Shown here piece by piece: positions 1,571-39,376 of a DNA stretch of 46,145 bases. The stretch comes from an uncultured virus (IMG/VR IMGVR_UViG_3300042894_007218). Its lineage: Duplodnaviria; Heunggongvirae; Uroviricota; Caudoviricetes. Every line of letters starts with the position of its first letter. Within the stretch, counting starts at the first letter, position 1. The notes under the pieces were generated by a model. That model was not told where the DNA came from and did not search any database. It was given only the letters and a program-made list of their open reading frames with translations. Location of the stretch: IMG/VR virus record IMGVR_UViG_3300042894_007218; one strand, written 5' to 3'. Made by a program: the position numbers and the translations under genes.

Positions 1571-4417
1571 TTATACTTTTGGTTTTTCAACAATAAATTC
1601 ACCATTAATATCATATAAACCACTACTTAAGATATAGTCATCGTGTCTTTCGCCAATTACTAACCAGGATATTTCATCAGATGAATTCGAATTAATACAG
1701 TTTATTTGTAGTTTATTTCCAATTACGATGCCTTTTACTGCATCCCATCCAGTCTCATTTGAGGTGAAACATTGGAAGTTTTTATTTAATGCAAGTAATG
1801 TACCTTCTGTCATATTAAATTGCTCATCTAAATTAATTTCAATAAATCCATTTACTAACTGTGATTTACCTCTGTATATGTTATTTGCCTGTGGTGCTTC
1901 TACAAAAGAGTGTAATAAAGTATGTGTTTCTTTTAGTTGTGGAAGAGGGTGGTCAATTTGAAATGTACCCGCTGCCTTTGAAAGTGTTCCATTAACTCTC
2001 AAATTATATGCTGTATATATACCACTTCCGCCCACTGTTGGTACTGTTCCGGAACCACCTGTCATATAAAATCTTATTTGGTCATTTTCGGAAATATCAC
2101 CAAATGTCAATAAGCCATCACCATCATCTCTTAAATTAAAATATGATCTGGTAGATGTTAGCATCTCAAAATAAGTTGGGTATTGAGTAATACTTGATGT
2201 TCCTGCTGTTATTGTTCCTGAATTATTGAATTTAATTTCTGAGCCGTTAGAGTTGGTTGTAAATTCAATATTTTTTTCACCGGTTGTATAGCCAAATTCT
2301 GCTATAGTACTTGTTCCTTGTATTCTTAAAAAGTTACCTCTTAGTGCAGTCGCAGATGCTGTTCCTACAACGGTAAAGTCATATGTAGGTGTATTTGTTT
2401 TTATACCAACTCTGTCTGTTGAAGCATCAGCAAAGAATAAATTCGCATTAGTATCTCCGCCAATTCTAAAGTCAGTGTTCGCGTCACCTGAGTTATTAAA
2501 TACCGAAGTTCCACTTTCGACAACTATTCCATAGTTTATATTTCCTCCTGTTGTAGTAACTTTTAATCCATAATTGGTTCCAGTAGTCGATGTGGTTGTG
2601 ACTGCTGAAATTGCATAATTATCACCTGAGGCAGTTCCGTTAGTATTTTGACTTACTAATGTATAAGCATGAGTTGTTTGTGTGTTTGATATTGAGAATT
2701 TTGCATTTGATGAATATCCACCAACTCCTGCCACATTAGTTGATGCTTGTGTTGATAAAAGATTTCCATCTAATGTTCCTTCAATTCTGAAATCATTACT
2801 ACCATTTGAATTATTAAATATGGCAGATCCTCTAACGTCTAATGTTGCCAGTGGTGTGTTTGTTCCAATACCAATACTATCAGTTGACGCATCAGCAAAG
2901 AATAAATTCGCATCAGTATCTCCTTCTATTCTAAAGTCTGTGTTTGCATCACCTGCTTCATTGAATATTGATGTTCCGGTATTTACAACAACTCCATAAT
3001 TGATTGAAGATCCACTTGTTTGTACAAAAAGTCCATAGTTTGCTGATGATTGAGTTGATGAAACTAAACTAAGAAGACCATAAGATGATGAAGTTGTTTT
3101 TGAACTATTATTGAAATAACCAGCATAAGAAGGATCTGTTGTATTTGCTGCTGTTGTTGCAACCCATGCAAAAACAGCTTTGTCTCCTGTTGAATAAACT
3201 GGCCCATTGCCAACTACGGCCCAAAGTGCATTATTTGCAAAGCTTCCGTTATTTACTTGTGTATAAAGACCTGTATTAGTTGAAGCGTTCCCTAAATTAG
3301 AGATATAAGATCCCCAGTTATTGGTACCAAACGTATCATTACTTACTCCTGTTCCAATTGTTACATAATTACCATAATAGCTACCTGCTGTGCCAGATGT
3401 TATTGTTGTATACATTCCGTAGGTTGTTGTAGATAATGTTAAAGTGGTGTAGACACCATAACTATTTGTGTTACTACCAGTATTTCTCGCATAGATTGCG
3501 AAAGTAGTACTGGCTGTTGATGTGCCGATGTTTCCAAGAACTCCGACATCACCACTTCCAAAACCAATAGAGGATCCAATATTTCCACTGATTGCTATGC
3601 TGTAAGTACCGCTTGAAATTTCAGAATGTATACCTGTTCTTATAGTTGTATTATTTTTTCTGATATACAACTGAGTATCGGAAGATGAAAGAGTTGTACC
3701 AATAAAAACATTTGTTCCGTTATCATAAATAAGTGAATTTGTCAAATCTGTAGAAGATGACCATTTTGGTAAATAATTTGTTGTTCCTGTACCTGTGACT
3801 ACTGAAGTTGGTATATCACTGACAAGTGCCATAGTTCCACCATTATTTGGCATTACAATTGACCAGTTTGCTGTTAATGTAGAAGTGAATAATCTCATTG
3901 TATATGAGCTACTTGTAAATCCAATGTAAGATGGGGTTGGTAAAATAATATTATTTACACCAGATGAATTTCCAACCGCTAAAACTTGAGATAGCGATGG
4001 TGTTGTTCCGCCTACTTGCCAAGTTGCGTTACCAGAAGCATCGGATGTAAGAACATATCCAGATGTCGCACCATCTGTTATTGTTATGTTTGAAGTGGTA
4101 ATGCCACCAACTCTTAGATTAGAATATGAGTCAATATTTACAGAGCCTATTACTGTGTGGTCATCGTTTGTTCCAATAAGTGCGAAAGTGTCATTTGTTT
4201 CATCCCATATAAAAGCCTGAGTTAGACCAGTTCCTCTGGTAAACATAATTCCTTCATCTAATAAAGGAGCACCTGATTGGCTATGACCTAAAGCTATTAT
4301 AGTATCTGATACAACTAAACTTGTTGTATAAATCGAAGAAGCAGATCCTAATATTGAAAAAGAACCTGTTACTAACAAATCACCCCATATTTCCGAACTT
4401 CCGTATATTTTTGGCAT
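1571..4417 (-). CDS. virion fibre/structural protein with internal repeats
   Basis: 948 aa, S/T/G-rich; three 'DFRIxG..DxNL' repeats; C-terminal FQIDHPL...HSFVEAP domain. Confidence 0.7.
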   Translation of the reverse strand: MPKIYGSSEIWGDLLVTGSFSILGSASSIYTTSLVVSDTIIALGHSQSGAPLLDEGIMFTRGTGLTQAFIWDETNDTFALIGTNDDHTVIGSVNIDSYSNLRVGGITTSNITITDGATSGYVLTSDASGNATWQVGGTTPSLSQVLAVGNSSGVNNIILPTPSYIGFTSSSYTMRLFTSTLTANWSIVMPNNGGTMALVSDIPTSVVTGTGTTNYLPKWSSSTDLTNSLIYDNGTNVFIGTTLSSSDTQLYIRKNNTTIRTGIHSEISSGTYSIAISGNIGSSIGFGSGDVGVLGNIGTSTASTTFAIYARNTGSNTNSYGVYTTLTLSTTTYGMYTTITSGTAGSYYGNYVTIGTGVSNDTFGTNNWGSYISNLGNASTNTGLYTQVNNGSFANNALWAVVGNGPVYSTGDKAVFAWVATTAANTTDPSYAGYFNNSSKTTSSSYGLLSLVSSTQSSANYGLFVQTSGSSINYGVVVNTGTSIFNEAGDANTDFRIEGDTDANLFFADASTDSIGIGTNTPLATLDVRGSAIFNNSNGSNDFRIEGTLDGNLLSTQASTNVAGVGGYSSNAKFSISNTQTTHAYTLVSQNTNGTASGDNYAISAVTTTSTTGTNYGLKVTTTGGNINYGIVVESGTSVFNNSGDANTDFRIGGDTNANLFFADASTDRVGIKTNTPTYDFTVVGTASATALRGNFLRIQGTSTIAEFGYTTGEKNIEFTTNSNGSEIKFNNSGTITAGTSSITQYPTYFEMLTSTRSYFNLRDDGDGLLTFGDISENDQIRFYMTGGSGTVPTVGGSGIYTAYNLRVNGTLSKAAGTFQIDHPLPQLKETHTLLHSFVEAPQANNIYRGKSQLVNGFIEINLDEQFNMTEGTLLALNKNFQCFTSNETGWDAVKGIVIGNKLQINCINSNSSDEISWLVIGERHDDYILSSGLYDINGEFIVEKPKV

Positions 4418-4432
4418 ATTATCTTATTTATT

Positions 4433-6766
4433 TTATCCTATTATTACAATTTTTATATTTGATAGGTTTTGAGTAAACCTAACCGCAACTGAGTTACTAT
4501 CTGAAATACTTACATCTCCGATTATCATAAATCCGGATGAATCATATGTTTGAACAATTACCTCATCTGTTCCAAGTGAATGTGTTATTGTTTGTGAAAC
4601 AGATGCTGTGAAGCTGGCTACTGTAGCGTATTTTGAAGTAGATGTTCCAACTTGTGAATCAACATATCCTTTTGTAACAAGTGAGTAAGTTGTGAAGTTA
4701 GCTGAGTAATCATCATAATAAACAAGTCCTTTTGATGAAAACTCATCTTCGATAATCATTGTGTTATTTGAAGATCCATCACCTAGTCCAATAGTCTGAT
4801 TTGATTTATAAATCTGTATGATGCTTTGGCTTAATCCATTATTTATGTACATAAACGAACCATTTGTATTTGCCTCAAATACTGAGTTATTTCCAGTAGA
4901 ATCTTGGTAAAATAAAGAAATGTTAGTAATACTTGAATTTAGTTGTGAGAAATTAAAACCATCCGTTGTTCCTAAAGTAGTTCCATTTCCTAAGAACACG
5001 TAGTCATATTCAGTTGAGTTTGAAGCAGTAAGGCTTATCTGATTTGCTCCTTCAACTTTGAAATCGAAATTGTTACCATTTATTAAAGTGTTTTGTGAAA
5101 GTGTTCCGCCTAAATAAATTTGGTCTGAAATAATTTGTAATCCGTTTCCGACATTCACATCTAATGTTACTGTACCTGAAGTTCCACCTCCACTTAATCC
5201 GTCACCAGCAACAACTTCAGAAACAAAGTCATTATTGATAGAATTAATTGTTGACCAAATAGATGCTGTTCCTAAATCAACATAATTTTTATCAACAAGT
5301 GAGTAAGTAACAAATGTTGATGAATAATCGAAGGCATATTGTAGACCCTCACCATTTGACACTGATATTGATGCTGAGCCAACTCCTATATTCAAACTTA
5401 AATTACTTACTAAAATTATATCTTCATCATCTAATTGTATATAAGCTTTATTTAAATTTCCATTATCGGTTGAAATTACTACGGTATCTGGCGCATAGTC
5501 TAAATTAATTTGACCACCACCTCTTACTGAATATAGAGACGAGCCGGTTCCCATTTCAATTGAATTATAACCAGTCCAATTACCGAGTGTTAAAACATCT
5601 TCAAGATTTTGATACTCCGCTGGACTTGATGTCCAATTTAAATTACCTAGACCATCAGTTACCATATAACTACCCGATGCGCCATCAACGTTTGGTAACG
5701 TATATTTGTTATTGATATTTACATACTCTCCTAAAACAACTGAGTTTGTCAATGAAGCTATTAAATTCTCACCACCTAATATAACAGCATTATGAACACC
5801 TATATCAACAAAACTATTTTTCGTTGAAATTAAAACTGGTGATGCGTCAACAGCTGGTGATGTAAATGATGTAAGTGTATCTGTAACTATTAATCCGTTT
5901 GTAGTTAAGGTTGTCGAACTTGATGATGTTATAAGTGCTATTAAACTATTACTGTTTTCTAATATCAGATTATTTGTATCTGTGAAACTTAGACTAGCAT
6001 CACCTAAAGAACCTCTAAGTTTTTTTGTATCCTGAATATAAGTATCTGGAATATAAACTGAGTTATTTGCAATTGCTGATTGACCAACACCACCGATAAT
6101 AACACTATTGATAACATTTGAGTTAAAGCTGGAGTTTTGTGAGCCAATAAATACAGCATTACTTGATGTGTTTGTACTTGTGACTGAAGTTCCAATATTA
6201 GATTTTAGTAGTATCTCATCTGATGTATTAAAAATTCTTAATCTGATTTCTGAATTAGAAAAAATATCTACATCAGTTGATAATTTTACATAATTTGAAC
6301 CATTTGTAATATCAATAGTATTTCCTAATGAGTTAACTAAACTCATAGTGGCATTAGTAAGAGATAAATAATTGTAACCAGTTGTCAAATAAACTGAACT
6401 TGTGAGTGAGTTATAATCAAAATATAAAGCAGATAAACCGTTATTTGATAAAATAGAACTGGATGTTCCCATATAAATTGTACTGGCAGATGCCATATCA
6501 ATAGTTCCTGAATTCCCAACTAAAATAGAAGTAGCTGTTCCCATAAGAATGGAGTATGTCTCTGAATCATTTGATACTGATAAGACTTGAGCTAATGACT
6601 GAGTTCCACCTGAAGAACCACTTCCAGTTCCGCCAATAGGAGTAATAACTCCGGCTGAGTCTTTTTGTTTTAAAATACCATCATCATCATATGCAACTAA
6701 AAATCCTGTAGAAGGAGTAGCCGCTGTAGTTAAAGACATGGTATAACCAAAAATAAGTGAGCTCAT
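4433..6766 (-). CDS. putative virion structural/fibre protein
   Basis: 777 aa, S/T/N-rich; 'SLAQVL..N' motif shared with neighbour; 'VAGDGLSGGGTSG' and C-terminal 'ITHSLGT' motifs. Confidence 0.65.
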   Translation of the reverse strand: MSSLIFGYTMSLTTAATPSTGFLVAYDDDGILKQKDSAGVITPIGGTGSGSSGGTQSLAQVLSVSNDSETYSILMGTATSILVGNSGTIDMASASTIYMGTSSSILSNNGLSALYFDYNSLTSSVYLTTGYNYLSLTNATMSLVNSLGNTIDITNGSNYVKLSTDVDIFSNSEIRLRIFNTSDEILLKSNIGTSVTSTNTSSNAVFIGSQNSSFNSNVINSVIIGGVGQSAIANNSVYIPDTYIQDTKKLRGSLGDASLSFTDTNNLILENSNSLIALITSSSSTTLTTNGLIVTDTLTSFTSPAVDASPVLISTKNSFVDIGVHNAVILGGENLIASLTNSVVLGEYVNINNKYTLPNVDGASGSYMVTDGLGNLNWTSSPAEYQNLEDVLTLGNWTGYNSIEMGTGSSLYSVRGGGQINLDYAPDTVVISTDNGNLNKAYIQLDDEDIILVSNLSLNIGVGSASISVSNGEGLQYAFDYSSTFVTYSLVDKNYVDLGTASIWSTINSINNDFVSEVVAGDGLSGGGTSGTVTLDVNVGNGLQIISDQIYLGGTLSQNTLINGNNFDFKVEGANQISLTASNSTEYDYVFLGNGTTLGTTDGFNFSQLNSSITNISLFYQDSTGNNSVFEANTNGSFMYINNGLSQSIIQIYKSNQTIGLGDGSSNNTMIIEDEFSSKGLVYYDDYSANFTTYSLVTKGYVDSQVGTSTSKYATVASFTASVSQTITHSLGTDEVIVQTYDSSGFMIIGDVSISDSNSVAVRFTQNLSNIKIVIIG

Positions 6767-7640: not shown

Positions 7641-7654
7641 GTATTATATATTAA

Positions 7655-8685: not shown

Positions 8686-8769
8686 TAAAAGTATATATTA
8701 ATTGAAAAAATTCTTTAATTTATAAGAAAAGAGAAAACTTTTTTATATATACACATACAATTAGAACAT

Positions 8770-8842
<73 letters not shown>

Positions 8843-8861
8843 CTAAAAAAATTAAAAAAGT

Positions 8862-8933
8862 ATGAATAAATTAGCAACATATTATTACGAAGCCGAGGGT
8901 TTAAACCCAGTCGGACGAGTTTGTGTGTTGTAA
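8862..8933 (+). CDS. attenuator leader peptide 2 (MNKLATYYYEAEGLNPVGRVCVL)
   Basis: YYYEAE run precedes tRNA-Glu and tRNA-Tyr; antiterminator 8910-8924. Confidence 0.85.
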   Translation: MNKLATYYYEAEGLNPVGRVCVL

Positions 8934-8952
8934 CGATTTGATTACTTTAAAC

Positions 8953-8984
8953 AAACCCAGTCCGATTTTGGTCTGGGTTTTTTT
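8953..8984 (+). terminator. intrinsic terminator (attenuator 2)
   Basis: AAACCCAG..CCGA/TTGG..CTGGGTTT plus T-run. Confidence 0.85.
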
Positions 8985-9007
8985 ATTTTAAAAATATTTT
9001 AAAAAGA

Positions 9008-9039
9008 TTTGGTGTATTTGAAAAGTTACCTTATCTTTG
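9008..9039 (+). promoter_or_regulatory. Bacteroidota-type promoter between attenuator 2 and tRNA-Glu
   Basis: TTTG-N20-TATCTTTG. Confidence 0.7.
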
Positions 9040-9094
9040 TAAAACAAAAGAGGTAAATATAAATCCAAGTAACCCCTTGGTTTTTTACTAACTT

Positions 9095-9166
9095 GGTCCC
9101 ATCGTCTAACGGTTAGGACGTTAGGTTTTCATCCTAGAAATCGGAGTTCGATTCTCCGTGGGACTA
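9095..9166 (+). tRNA. tRNA-Glu(TTC)
   Basis: ttagg TT TTC AT cctag. Confidence 0.95.
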
Positions 9167-9177
9167 CAAAATTTATT

Positions 9178-9258
9178 GGAAGGTGGCAGAGTGGTTAAAT
9201 GCGGCAGACTGTAAATCTGCTCTCTTACGAGTACGGGGGTTCGAATCCCTCCCTTCCA
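9178..9258 (+). tRNA. tRNA-Tyr(GTA)
   Basis: gcaga CT GTA AA tctgc; long variable arm. Confidence 0.95.
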
Positions 9259-9314
9259 ACAAAATTTAAAAGAGGAAATAAACTTTTTATATATAATAAC
9301 ATAAAATAGAAACA

Positions 9315-9398
9315 ATGAAAAATTTAACTAACATAGGGGCAGTAATTATAGCGATAGGCGCGGGGCGTTTTATCGATAGACTGAGTTATGTTATGTAA
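9315..9398 (+). CDS. attenuator leader peptide 3 (MKNLTNIGAVIIAIGAGRFIDRLSYVM)
   Basis: ATA x3, GGG x2, GGC, GCA, GCG x2 precede Ile(TAT)/Ala/Gly tRNAs; antiterminator 9378-9387. Confidence 0.85.
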   Translation: MKNLTNIGAVIIAIGAGRFIDRLSYVM

Positions 9399-9419
9399 AT
9401 TTTGACTTTACATATATTT

Positions 9420-9451
9420 AAAACCCAGTCTCGAAAAGACTGGGTTTTTTT
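9420..9451 (+). terminator. intrinsic terminator (attenuator 3)
   Basis: AAAACCCAGTCT/AGACTGGGTTTT plus T-run. Confidence 0.9.
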
Positions 9452-9455
9452 ATTT

Positions 9456-9536
9456 CGGCAAGTACCGTTGGTGTCTTATACACACTATACACGTAGCGGG
9501 AAGTTGAAAACGTGGGTTCGAATCCCACCTTGCCGA
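9456..9536 (+). tRNA. atypical tRNA-Ile(TAT)-like RNA lacking a canonical D-arm
   Basis: Acceptor cggcaag/cttgccg; T-arm gtggg TTCGAAT cccac; gtgt CT TAT AC acac. Confidence 0.6.
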
Positions 9537-9542
9537 CAAATT

Positions 9543-9616
9543 GGGCCATTGGTGAAGAAGGCTATCATACCTGGTTTGCACCCAGGAGTCACGAGTTCGA
9601 GGCTCGTATGTGTCCA
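9543..9616 (+). tRNA. tRNA-Ala(TGC)
   Basis: cctgg TT TGC AC ccagg; G3:U70 present; 1-nt bulge in acceptor. Confidence 0.85.
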
Positions 9617-9622
9617 CAATTT

Positions 9623-9710
9623 GCAGGTATCGCCTAGTTGGTCGATGGCTCCGGATTTCCAATCCGGTCAGATAAGGTTCACAACGTGGGTTCGAATCCC
9701 ACTACCTGCT
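9623..9710 (+). tRNA. tRNA-Gly(TCC) with enlarged variable region
   Basis: ccgga TT TCC AA tccgg; U73. Confidence 0.85.
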
Positions 9711-9767
9711 CAAACCTTGCCAAGATTGGGGTCGTGAGTATTCTCCACAAAAATTAATATATACTAT

Positions 9768-9950
9768 ATGACAATTTTTAAAAACAAATTAGACGGAAAG
9801 CTCTACACTATTTATAAGAATAGTGATGGAACACTTACTGCATTTCCTTCTGGTAAGGTTGTAGATGAGATGAGTATATTAAAAAATTGTAAGCTCGAAG
9901 ATTTTTTTGTTTACAAAATTGAACAAAATAAAATTAAAGGTTTTATATAA
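9768..9950 (+). CDS. hypothetical protein
   Basis: ORF after AATATATA motif. Confidence 0.6.
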   Translation: MTIFKNKLDGKLYTIYKNSDGTLTAFPSGKVVDEMSILKNCKLEDFFVYKIEQNKIKGFI

Positions 9951-14183: not shown

Positions 14184-14300
14184 ATGAAAACGAATTTGAC
14201 AAATATGACGATGAACCTAACACTCAATGTGGTGAATATTACGTTATGTAATATTAGAACTTCTGAGGGTTCCTTCCTATTTAGTAAATTTGTCTTATAA
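14184..14300 (+). CDS. attenuator leader peptide 4 (MKTNLTNMTMNLTLNVVNITLCNIRTSEGSFLFSKFVL)
   Basis: Codons 3-26 are only T/N/L/M/V/I/C/R, matching the downstream tRNAs; antiterminator 14262-14272. Confidence 0.88.
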   Translation: MKTNLTNMTMNLTLNVVNITLCNIRTSEGSFLFSKFVL

Positions 14301-14688: not shown

Positions 14689-14771
14689 GCACCTGTGGTC
14701 GAGTGGAGTAGAAATACGGAAGGCACTGGATTGCAAACCCAGTCACGGGGGTTCAAGTCCCTCCAGGTGCT
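14689..14771 (+). tRNA. tRNA-Cys(GCA) with enlarged D-loop
   Basis: ctgga TT GCA AA cccag; U73. Confidence 0.85.
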
Positions 14772-14778
14772 CAAATAT

Positions 14779-26981: not shown

Positions 26982-27074
26982 ATGAAAAACGTAATTGTAA
27001 ATATCGTAGTAAATCAACAACCGCAGGATCAGGATCCAGTCGGAGTGACTAACTATGTTTTTACATTGAGTTAA
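26982..27074 (+). CDS. attenuator leader peptide 5 (MKNVIVNIVVNQQPQDQDPVGVTNYVFTLS)
   Basis: QQPQDQDP run precedes Asp/Pro/Gln tRNAs; antiterminator 27046-27054. Confidence 0.88.
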   Translation: MKNVIVNIVVNQQPQDQDPVGVTNYVFTLS

Positions 27075-30068: not shown

Positions 30069-30791
30069 ATGGAATTAAATAAAATCTACCACGGTGATTG
30101 TTTAGAAGGTCTTAAATCAATGTCTGAAGCAACAGTTGATTTAGTTGTTACATCACCTCCTTACAATCTTAATATTGATTATGCTCATCATAAAGATGAT
30201 ATGAAATTAGAAGCTTACTACAATTGGTGTAGAGAGTGGATTTCAGAATGTTATCGGGTATTAAAACCAGGTGGTAGATTTTGTCTTCAAATAGGTTGCT
30301 TTCAGTCTCAGTTAAATGAGCCTTCCTATGCGACCTTCACAAATATATTTCAGGAGGTAGGATTTACTTTTAGAGAGTTTATTATTTGGAATAAAAATCA
30401 AATTCCTAAAAGAACAGCGTGGGGTAGTTGGAAAAGCCCATCAAACCCACGCATCTTACCTCCATTTGAAATGATTATTAATTTTCACAAAGGTTCTCCT
30501 AAGATTTTAGAAAAAGGTGAAACTGATTTAACTAAAGAAGAATTTGTTGCTTGGACAAACGGTCTTTGGGTTATGGCTCCTGAAAGTGCTAAAAAAAGAA
30601 ATCATCCAGCTCCTTTCCCAGAAGAATTAGTAACTCGTTGTATTAAAATGCACTCTTATATTGGTGGTGTTGTACTTGATCCATTTAATGGTAGTGGAAC
30701 AACTACATCAGTTGCTAATAAGTTAGGAAGAAAATGGATTGGTTATGACATTACTGAAGAGTATTGTAGTTTAGCAGAAGATAGGATATAA
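30069..30791 (+). CDS. DNA methyltransferase, N4-C/N6-A beta class
   Basis: VTSPPYN precedes HPAPFP and VLDPFNGSGTT. Confidence 0.92.
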   Translation: MELNKIYHGDCLEGLKSMSEATVDLVVTSPPYNLNIDYAHHKDDMKLEAYYNWCREWISECYRVLKPGGRFCLQIGCFQSQLNEPSYATFTNIFQEVGFTFREFIIWNKNQIPKRTAWGSWKSPSNPRILPPFEMIINFHKGSPKILEKGETDLTKEEFVAWTNGLWVMAPESAKKRNHPAPFPEELVTRCIKMHSYIGGVVLDPFNGSGTTTSVANKLGRKWIGYDITEEYCSLAEDRI

Positions 30792-36916: not shown

Positions 36917-37215
36917 TTTGGTGGATTTGAAATATTGCCTTATCTTTGTATTAACAAACGATGGGGAAGTTCCAGAGCGGCAAATGGAGTTACGTTGTAA
37001 CGTGACTGGTCTCAATAGATCTTCGTAGGTTCGAGTCCTAACCTTTCCCACAAAAAGATTTGGTAGATTGAAAAATTTTACTTATCTTTGTAAAACAAAT
37101 CAGAAACGTCTGATATAATTAAAAGTTCTTTGAAAAACGGTTTAGTACTAAACAAACTAAACCAAAAAAAAAGTAAAAAAAGATTTGGTCGAAATAAAAA
37201 AAGTTCATATCTTTG
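36917..37215 (+). promoter_or_regulatory. three tandem Bacteroidota-type promoters (36917-36948, 37059-37090, 37184-37215)
   Basis: TTTGG-start, N20 spacer, TATCTTTG in all three. Confidence 0.8.
36963..37050 (+). tRNA. tRNA-Tyr(GTA)-like with irregular anticodon loop
   Basis: Tyr-type D-arm and variable arm; gttacg TTGTAA cgtgac (6-nt loop). Confidence 0.6.
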
Positions 37216-37374: not shown

Positions 37375-38205
37375 ACAGTCGGTTTCGGCTGACTGTGAAA
37401 AGAAGGGCGGCTTATAGTCCTTAAAATAAACCGTGAAAGCGGGATAAAGTGAACAGAATAGCTAAATCTGTTTGCGTCTTGAACCCTCGGGTTTGAGGTC
37501 GAGTAAGCAAGTGGGATACCACAACTCCTTATTAATCGAGGGTAACACTGTAGATGAAATGGATTTGTGACCAGGCAATTGTAGATTGTTTGGTTGACTT
37601 CGGAAGAAGAATAGGAATAACCCATAGGTCTGTTGCGAGAAGTGTTGACTCACCGGTCTTCATCATTGCGGAGCCCAACTTAAGAGGTGTCTTAAAGTCG
37701 AAAGACAATCAGGTGTACGGGTGGTGCTGTTACTTGACACTCTTCTCTCTACCAGGAGAGTTGTTGTGGAGATATCTTAAAGAGTTGTGATGGAGGCATC
37801 ACACGGAGTAGTTCAGTATTCTTGAGGTCAAAAGCTTTGAGAGCTGAGAGGTAACCACTACTTCGACAAATCTACAAAGCACTAAATTTCACTATTAATG
37901 AAACATTTAAAAAGGAAATCGAAAGTGTTACCTAGTTACTGATGAAAGGTACCTACCCAGTCGTGAGTGTTCACGGCCACTGATGCTCGAAAGGCTGATG
38001 TGATTTCATCGAAAAGCTTATAGAGGGTCGAACCTCGAGTCAGCTCGCAAGGTTGAGTAAGTGGATTAAATGGAGAGTAATTAGTAACTTAAGGAGTGGT
38101 TAGTCTAACTAACCGGTACTGACAGAGTACTTCTCAAAAGGAAGTGGATAAGAAGGGAAACCATAATCTAACAAAAGTTCTGTCGTCAAAGGCGTAATCT
38201 CAGCC
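37375..38205 (+). ncRNA. large structured RNA, probably GOLLD
   Basis: About 830 nt, GC-richer, no credible ORF, many GNRA/UUCG-capped hairpins, flanked by tRNAs, ends in hairpin plus T-run. Confidence 0.65.
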
Positions 38206-38258
38206 TTTTTTGGTCGGTTCATAGGAACCTCTGAGAGCGAGACTCAGACCGACCTCAA

Positions 38259-39272: not shown

Positions 39273-39376
39273 GGTCCTTTAGCTCAGCAGGTTAGAGCAA
39301 CTGACTCTAAGTGTTATAAGTAAATTAACACAACAATATAATCAGTAGGTCCACGGTTCGAGCCCGTGAGGGACCA
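39273..39376 (+). tRNA. tRNA-Ile2-like gene interrupted by a 30-nt insertion in the anticodon loop
   Basis: Ile2-type body ggtccttTAGCTCAG...; actga CTC[30 nt]ATAA tcagt. Confidence 0.75.

Follow-up and report, generated by a model that had tools for sequence, protein, structure and literature searches.

The class I leader-peptide attenuators include trpL, hisL, pheL, leuL, thrL (Thr/Ile) and ilvL (Ile/Leu/Val). In these attenuators of amino-acid operons, a short open reading frame (ORF) with regulatory codons, rare synonymous codons among them, is combined with mutually exclusive protector, antiterminator and terminator structures and an intrinsic terminator, and the position of the ribosome decides the outcome. 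The attenuator of Escherichia coli pheST (pheM leader) controls phenylalanyl-transfer RNA (tRNA) synthetase, while T-box riboswitches bind uncharged tRNA directly and need no ribosome. Here we analysed a 46,145-base stretch of DNA from an uncultured virus (IMG/VR record IMGVR_UViG_3300042894_007218; 31% G+C), hereafter the window. Its closest DNA matches are the uncultured phage assemblies LR745206.1 (634,780 bases) and LR756502.1 (642,428 bases), and its source is probably a huge phage infecting Bacteroidota. We propose, with a probability that we put at roughly 0.8, that positions 9315-9451 form a working ribosome-mediated (leader-peptide, trp-type) transcription attenuator of three tRNA genes.

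The predicted unit has all of the elements listed for the amino-acid-operon attenuators, and we propose that it too decides by ribosome position. It differs in that it would regulate tRNAs, products that act directly on the sensor codons, and in being phage-borne, with several units per genome, each serving its own tRNA subset. The known class governs amino-acid biosynthesis, transport and synthetase genes; because the genes downstream here are tRNAs, we regard the unit as a variant rather than an ordinary class member. As in pheST, a component of the translation apparatus would be controlled by the decoding speed of cognate codons, but pheST concerns a synthetase of a bacterial chromosome and one amino acid, whereas the phage units concern tRNAs for two to ~ten amino acids each. 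With T-boxes the unit shares the coupling of tRNA state to terminator read-through with codon-like specificity, except that the phage specificity lies in an in-frame ORF and no T-box model matched. Indeed, no Rfam leader or T-box match reached its gathering score anywhere in the window. Within 9255-9460 the best Rfam match scored 24 bits (cut-off 55) and Trp_leader (RF00513) 13 bits (cut-off 41), and the matches below cut-off in the attenuator were all driven by the terminator hairpin. A search of the full-text literature, which leaves most subscription journals outside its coverage, found no paper on leader-peptide control of tRNA genes.

The sequence-only reading had described this locus as an ATA/GGG/GCG attenuator ahead of Ile, Ala and Gly tRNAs, and the anatomy of the locus, nine orthologues and a set of 32 leader units support that description. 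The leader ORF (9315..9398, plus strand) has 27 codons and a TAA stop. Its codons 7-17 (9333..9365) read ATA GGG GCA GTA ATT ATA GCG ATA GGC GCG GGG and encode Ile Gly Ala Val Ile Ile Ala Ile Gly Ala Gly, so that Ile, Gly or Ala account for 10 of the 11 positions, as expected of regulatory codons. Three ATA codons are present, as had been stated (9333, 9348 and 9354), together with one ATT (9345) and one ATC (9372). The leader stop lies 21 nucleotides (nt) before an intrinsic terminator, the arrangement found in leader-peptide attenuators. This terminator (9420..9451, plus strand), detected with a scan tool, has a 12-pair stem (9420-9431 / 9437-9448; five G-C pairs), a 5-nt loop and seven T (9445-9451), the first four of which form the outer four A-T pairs; its fold energy is -16.9 kcal/mol.

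Two further elements lie within or at the end of the leader. Minimum free energy (MFE) folds placed the 5´ strand of a protector hairpin at 9319..9343 (region 1), and folds together with conservation placed region 2 at 9378..9403, with 9378-9387 as the predicted antiterminator strand and the remainder pairing with region 1. The strand at 9378-9387 had been called a near copy of the terminator 3´ arm, and 9 of its 10 bases are indeed those of 9437-9446. This makes it complementary to 9422-9431 in the 5´ arm, with a duplex energy of -10.6 kcal/mol. We folded transcripts ended at the terminator loop, with the 3´ arm not yet transcribed. In the unmasked transcript, region 1 paired with region 2 (-22.3 kcal/mol) and the terminator 5´ arm was free. 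When the bases covered by a ribosome were masked, the 5´ arm paired with 9378-9387 for front edges at 9350-9377 (-12.9 to -15.0 kcal/mol), and this pairing was lost for a front edge of at least 9383. From the usual extent of ribosome footprints, we assumed that the front edge lies 12 nt beyond the first base of the codon in the A site. On that basis, the antiterminator is predicted to stay available while the ribosome is at codon 18 or earlier and to disappear at codon 19-20; the sensor run has its final Gly codon at position 17. In all five units of this kind in the window, the masked folds lost the antiterminator just after the last sensor residue matching the downstream tRNAs. In silico, then, the antiterminator excludes the terminator, and a ribosome approaching the stop codon can cover its upstream strand, as in an attenuator.

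These features suggest the following sequence of events. Transcripts would arrive from a promoter-like site at 9008 via tRNA-Glu and tRNA-Tyr genes, and possibly also from a motif at 9280-9295. If the leader is untranslated, region 1 would pair with region 2, the terminator would form and transcription would stop 5 nt before the tRNAs. Fast translation to the stop codon would have the same outcome, with the ribosome covering region 2. A ribosome slowed on codons 7-17 (ATA, GGG/GGC, GCA/GCG) would instead occupy region 1 and leave region 2 free to pair with the terminator 5´ arm, allowing polymerase to read into the Ile(UAU)-like, Ala(UGC) and Gly(UCC) tRNA genes. Because the downstream tRNAs decode the delaying codons, the circuit would amount to negative feedback matching tRNA supply to demand. 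We infer that ribosomes translate the leader, that the host couples its transcription to translation, and that the speed of decoding affects read-through.

Conservation was assessed in nine diverged orthologues. The antiterminator could pair in 93.8% of 81 alignment cells, compared with 25-42% when the partner was slid by 1-3 columns. One of its pairs changes on both sides (UA in five, AU in three and GU in one), with a covariation score reached by 1 of 500 shuffles, and covariation with the terminator 3´ arm is seen at the same 5´-arm column. The terminator-core pattern used to find orthologues left this column unspecified and did not include region 2. The protector could pair in 73.8% of cells, compared with 32-49% in slid controls, which gives it moderate support. 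The leader ORF itself was kept in all nine, and the four internal indels (4/4) are multiples of three, while indels 3´ of the stop codon are not. This bears on the possibility that 9420..9451 is an ordinary terminator of the tRNA-Glu/tRNA-Tyr unit preceded by a fortuitous ORF, with the downstream tRNAs transcribed by leak-through or from another promoter. A 27-codon ORF is not rare in A+T-rich DNA, where by our estimate ~1 in 9 frames of this length would be open. Such an ORF would not, however, be expected to persist in nine orthologues with in-frame indels only, ahead of an antiterminator conserved with covariation, and the gap of 5 nt from the T run to the first tRNA leaves no room for a promoter there. 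We consider this account very improbable.

The first RNA beyond the terminator (9456..9536, plus strand) was identified by alignment to the Rfam tRNA model (35.6 bits, cut-off 29) as a non-canonical, 81-nt tRNA-like RNA with the anticodon UAU, and is a putative Ile tRNA reading AUA. Its 7-nt loop (9475-9481) contains the TAT anticodon at 9477-9479, in agreement with the TAT loop reported from the letters. The RNA has acceptor, anticodon and T arms but no D arm (15 model positions reduced to 4 nt), and its variable region is long, at 22 nt. ARAGORN at default settings gave no call for 9456-9536, and the relaxed fold was poor. The D-arm-less form is common to the window and the related locus L013, whose copy was called tRNA-Ile(tat) by ARAGORN at a relaxed threshold. 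Two compensatory pair changes in the anticodon stem are the only differences between the copies, indicating that the anticodon arm is under selection, and the four base changes recur in a contig of one lake run. A canonical tRNA-Ile(UAU) is the first gene after the terminator in 7 of the 9 orthologous units (default ARAGORN). An alternative MFE structure, in which 9456-9540 is one long hairpin, was rejected since the L013 copy breaks that pairing and keeps the anticodon stem. Next come tRNA-Ala(UGC), which reads GCA/GCG (9543..9615, plus strand; ARAGORN, Rfam 40.9 bits), and tRNA-Gly(UCC), which reads GGA/GGG (9623..9711, plus strand; ARAGORN, Rfam 59.3 bits) and is 89 nt long with an unusually long variable region. 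By alignment to L013, 9714..9750 (plus strand) is a remnant of tRNA-Gly(GCC), comprising the anticodon arm and part of the T arm. The leader GGC codon (9357) has no cognate tRNA in the window; an intact tRNA-Gly(GCC), which would read it, follows the cluster in several relatives.

We then compared codon choice with the downstream anticodons. In the 29 long ORFs of the window, taken as genome usage, ATA makes up 31% of Ile codons, GCA plus GCG 49% and GCG 9% of Ala codons, and GGG 3% and GGC 8% of Gly codons. In the sensor zone (codons 8-19 of the nine orthologous leaders), Ile was encoded by ATA in 16 of 19 cases (genome 31%) and Ala by GCA/GCG in 23 of 23 (genome 49%); for Gly, GGA/GGG accounted for 13 of 24 and GGC for 10 of 24. 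The fourth leader of the window, which precedes tRNA-Ile(GAU), contains two ATT and no ATA, as the sequence-only reading had said of it, and ATT is also found before tRNA-Ile(GAU) in LR745206.1 and in the examined part of the LR756502.1 leader. Arg is CGN in 6 of 7 cases before Arg(ACG/UCG), the exception being codon 2, and AGA in 3 of 3 before Arg(UCU). Across the five window leaders, G-ending codons made up 19 of the 34 cognate to U34 tRNAs (4.5 expected, p = 5e-9), whereas C-ending codons cognate to G34 tRNAs were not enriched (4 of 19, 4.4 expected). Orthologues share ancestry, so these binomial p-values overstate the evidence. Rare regulatory codons have been predicted for sensitive attenuators (PMC1183508).

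The claim that matching extends to the isoacceptor level is thus largely supported: it holds for Ile and Ala, for the use of ATT before Ile(GAU) and for the Arg rule, with caveats for Gly, for GGC and for the ATA at codon 7. The last of these belongs to an N-terminal start motif that is also carried by leaders lacking a downstream Ile tRNA, and this codon sits inside the protector stem. In loci L050-L097 it was pre-set by the search pattern, and the same codon was seen in units found otherwise. As a description of the sensor, three ATA codons therefore overstate the case, since only two are unit-specific. Overall, we think it somewhat probable that the codons are chosen to suit the anticodons downstream. 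The same counts bear on whether the signal might be amino-acid supply (host tRNA charging in starvation) rather than tRNA abundance, read by the same attenuator hardware. Charging and abundance are indistinguishable from sequence, and classical attenuators read the concentration of charged tRNA (PMC1183508). Extra tRNA would, however, bring no relief of starvation, so that the product would not answer the signal, and a synonymous choice that follows anticodons (ATA or ATT, CGN or AGA, GCA/GCG in 23 of 23) would be needless for a sensor of amino acids. We therefore regard amino-acid supply as quite an unlikely signal.

The locus is one of five leader/terminator/tRNA units in the window, in each of which the leader is enriched in the amino acids of its own tRNAs. 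Leader 1 (821-922) precedes Phe, Lys, His, Arg and Ser tRNAs, plus a Trp tRNA called only at a relaxed ARAGORN threshold; leader 2 (8862-8933) precedes Glu and Tyr tRNAs; leader 3 (9315-9398) is the one described above, before the Ile-like, Ala and Gly tRNAs; leader 4 (14184-14300) precedes Asn, Arg, Val, Ile(GAU), Thr, Val, Arg, Leu and Leu tRNAs; and leader 5 (26982-27074) precedes Asp, Pro and Gln tRNAs. Among the 120 possible assignments of leaders to clusters, the true one was the best, with 61 matching residues against a mean of 29 (the second unit being represented in this test by an identical peptide in locus L035). The same system was found in LR756502.1 and LR745206.1. Two pattern scans of IMG/VR gave 91 loci, 23 of which had a unit by a rule requiring a near-perfect hairpin and T run, a tRNA called by default ARAGORN within 150 nt, and an ORF of at least 12 codons ending no more than 70 nt before the hairpin; the other 68 may include missed units. 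After removal of identical peptides, 32 distinct leaders remained. In these, 289 of 830 residues had a downstream tRNA for that amino acid, compared with 122 +/- 14.7 for shuffled clusters, a value reached by none of 100,000 shuffles. With one unit kept per distinct tRNA set (24 units), the count was 240, compared with 102 +/- 14.3, and again 0 of 100,000 shuffles were as high. The match tests counted only tRNAs called by default ARAGORN, which omits non-canonical ones, making the counts conservative. That leader composition tracks the tRNA set across 32 units is a further argument against an ORF open by chance.

The relatives also show units rearranged together with their leaders. The Phe/Lys/His/Arg/Ser unit of the window corresponds to two units in LR756502.1, where a Lys/His/Phe-rich leader precedes Phe/His/Lys tRNAs and a Ser/Arg-rich leader precedes Arg/Ser tRNAs. 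The Asp/Pro/Gln unit likewise corresponds to a Pro/Asp unit and a Gln unit, the leader of the latter having seven consecutive Gln codons followed by four tRNA-Gln genes. In a merged case (locus L043), one leader mixes Glu, Tyr, Ile, Gly and Ala codons before Tyr, Glu, Ile, Gly and Ala tRNAs. Thus the middle of the leader peptide changes completely with the downstream tRNA set, and the N- and C-terminal residues are conserved among units. The conserved ends could be read as the mark of a functional micro-protein, with the terminator merely ending its messenger RNA. In the RNA, those ends nevertheless form both strands of the protector stem, a complete switch of the middle with the tRNA set is hard to reconcile with such a protein, and the 27-residue Ile/Gly/Ala peptide has no family to test. 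A micro-protein seems to us scarcely credible.

Several observations weigh against an attenuator of this kind and against our account of its codons. Sufficiently tight coupling of transcription and translation in Bacteroidota is an assumption. At equilibrium, the terminator won in every masked fold of the full transcript, implying that the decision must be kinetic, as in classical attenuators; predicted antitermination accordingly depends on assumed kinetics, namely the front-edge offset and folding before the 3´ arm emerges. The protector is only moderately conserved and was missing from the MFE folds of three of the five window units. The first tRNA is structurally non-canonical in lacking a D arm. 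One of the scan patterns fixed leader codons 1-7 and the other fixed the terminator core, and the match statistics treat orthologous leaders as independent when orthologues share ancestry. As for the codons, GTA, ATT and GGC in the sensor run have no cognate tRNA in the downstream cluster, the share of GGA/GGG among Gly codons is not above genome usage, and 8 of 9 orthologues keep the GGC GCG GGG nucleotides almost unchanged, so that a constraint at the RNA level may share credit with codon sensing.

This last point leads to an explanation in which the attenuator is real but ATA, GCG, GGG and GGC are fixed by RNA structure or by a need for G+C in a 31% G+C genome. The near invariance extends to a GGC that tRNA-Gly(UCC) does not read, the G+C-rich GGC GCG GGG stretch makes a local hairpin in the window, and the ATA at codon 7 is both part of the protector stem and shared by leaders that lack an Ile tRNA. 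On the other hand, enrichment is specific to G-ending codons of U34 tRNAs and does not extend to C-ending codons of G34 tRNAs, which rules out a general rise in G+C, and the partner of the local hairpin is not conserved in LR756502.1. Natural variants in lake-run contigs (GGG to GGA, GCG to GCA) stay within the set read by the same tRNA, and GGC is matched by tRNA-Gly(GCC) in relatives. We judge a purely structural origin of these codons unlikely, and return to the attenuator as a sensor of decoding speed.

If the units act in this way, they may together form a codon-resolved tRNA-demand network, an idea that we put forward tentatively and hold to be somewhat less than an even bet. Each tRNA sub-cluster would stand behind a leader written in its own codons and would be made only when those codons are read slowly, with rare G-ending wobble codons as hypersensitive probes, and units would be rewritten as clusters split or merge. 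Slow reading could be caused by the codon demand of an A+T-rich phage, by host tRNA decay or by host defences that cut or deplete tRNAs. Such units would be evolvable sensor-and-supply modules and could serve as a counter-defence. More generally, the proposal bears on how phages control tRNA genes and why they carry them, and it may link phage tRNAs to host tRNA-targeting immunity. If correct, it would describe a direct supply-demand circuit for the translation apparatus, built on a mechanism so far tied to amino-acid metabolism, would predict which codons limit phage translation in the host, and would offer natural modular parts for reporting tRNA availability in Bacteroidota.

A comparable arrangement is present in the cultured Cellulophaga phage phi17:2 (KC821609.1), whose leader ORFs lie at ~3738-3850 and 4644-4825. 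One leader contains 11 consecutive codons for Gln Arg Leu His Leu Gln Glu Leu Glu Gln Pro; after it come a stem-loop and T run, identified by visual inspection, and then tRNAs for Pro, Glu, Gln, His, Leu, Leu and Arg. The second short frame, gp077, annotated as a hypothetical protein with a TTG start, consists almost entirely of Thr, Lys, Gly, Ile, Val, Asp, Ala, Arg and Tyr and precedes tRNAs for Ala, Lys, Ile, Gly, Met, Asp, Thr, Val, Arg, Met and Tyr. With this phage and its host in culture, the idea is directly testable. A third phi17:2 frame, gp078, before Ser, Asn, Trp and Phe tRNAs, was not counted, as the match was loose and no clear terminator was seen.

Upstream of the attenuator, a pattern scan located a Bacteroidota-type promoter-like site with -33 and -7 elements (9008..9039, plus strand). 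The consensus used is one that we take to be the Bacteroidota promoter, and on that basis the site is the likely source of transcripts crossing tRNA-Glu(UUC) (9095-9167) and tRNA-Tyr(GUA) (9177-9260; both plus strand, ARAGORN and Rfam) into the attenuator. Very similar sites occur on the plus strand at 9008, 36917, 37059, 37184 and 39401, and this family stands directly 5´ of RNA genes (tRNA-Glu, a tRNA-like RNA, an unassigned stretch and tRNA-Met). Downstream of the site at 9008 and ahead of tRNA-Glu, 9065-9086 holds a small hairpin and T run, the 5´ arm of which can alternatively pair with bases just before tRNA-Glu; this hairpin is identical in the related locus L035 and absent from L013. 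Nearer the leader, an invariant alignment block (9280..9295, plus strand) ends in an alternating A/T heptamer, which is found 6-22 nt 5´ of the ATG in all five leader ORFs. The same heptamer occurs 3-7 nt 5´ of the ATG of many ordinary ORFs, for example at 9757, 10871, 20536, 25769, 27906 and 35004 on the plus strand and at 7651 and 23098 on the minus strand. Its role may be that of a phage promoter, or it may signal the start of messenger RNAs that are almost leaderless.

Some variation was seen around the tRNA genes. In lake-run contigs covering window positions 8700-9800, joints skip or repeat parts of the tRNA block (e.g. a return from 9714 to 9541 and a skip from 9263 to 9433), suggesting that tRNA order and the presence of the attenuator may vary among strains. 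In LR756502.1 (locus L001, ~4426 onward), a protein ORF within the Ile/Gly/Ala cluster separates tRNA-Gly(GCC) and tRNA-Ala from the attenuator, and in locus L004 a 67-codon ORF (30346-30549) lies between the terminator of the fourth attenuator and its tRNA cluster. An exact 18-mer of the sensor run was found at only two IMG/VR loci, both G+C-rich and without tRNAs, and these were set aside as chance matches.

The window as a whole has 23 tRNA genes by default ARAGORN, or 25 Rfam tRNA matches, along with one GOLLD RNA. Further non-canonical tRNA-like genes missed by default ARAGORN lie at 1234-1305 (Trp(CCA)), 1491-1578 (Ser(GCU)-like), 14689-14772 (Cys(GCA)-like), 36963-37049 (with an odd anticodon loop) and 39273-39376 (a 104-nt Rfam tRNA). 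In ARAGORN intron mode, the last of these has a CUA anticodon and a 30-nt insert, and it is a possible amber suppressor; the intron and mitochondrial modes gave many implausible calls and were used for no count. Most large ORFs of the window have no Pfam family, and one encodes a ClpB-like ATPase. The sequencing runs listed as containing the sequence are all of DNA, with no RNA run among them; their labels are lake water, freshwater or plain metagenome, and two others carry a coded organism label. The GOLLD RNA (37804-38206, plus strand) scored 285.7 bits and its LR756502.1 copy (locus L005, 14686-15092) 275.3 bits, and in both phages it sits among promoter-like sites and tRNA genes.

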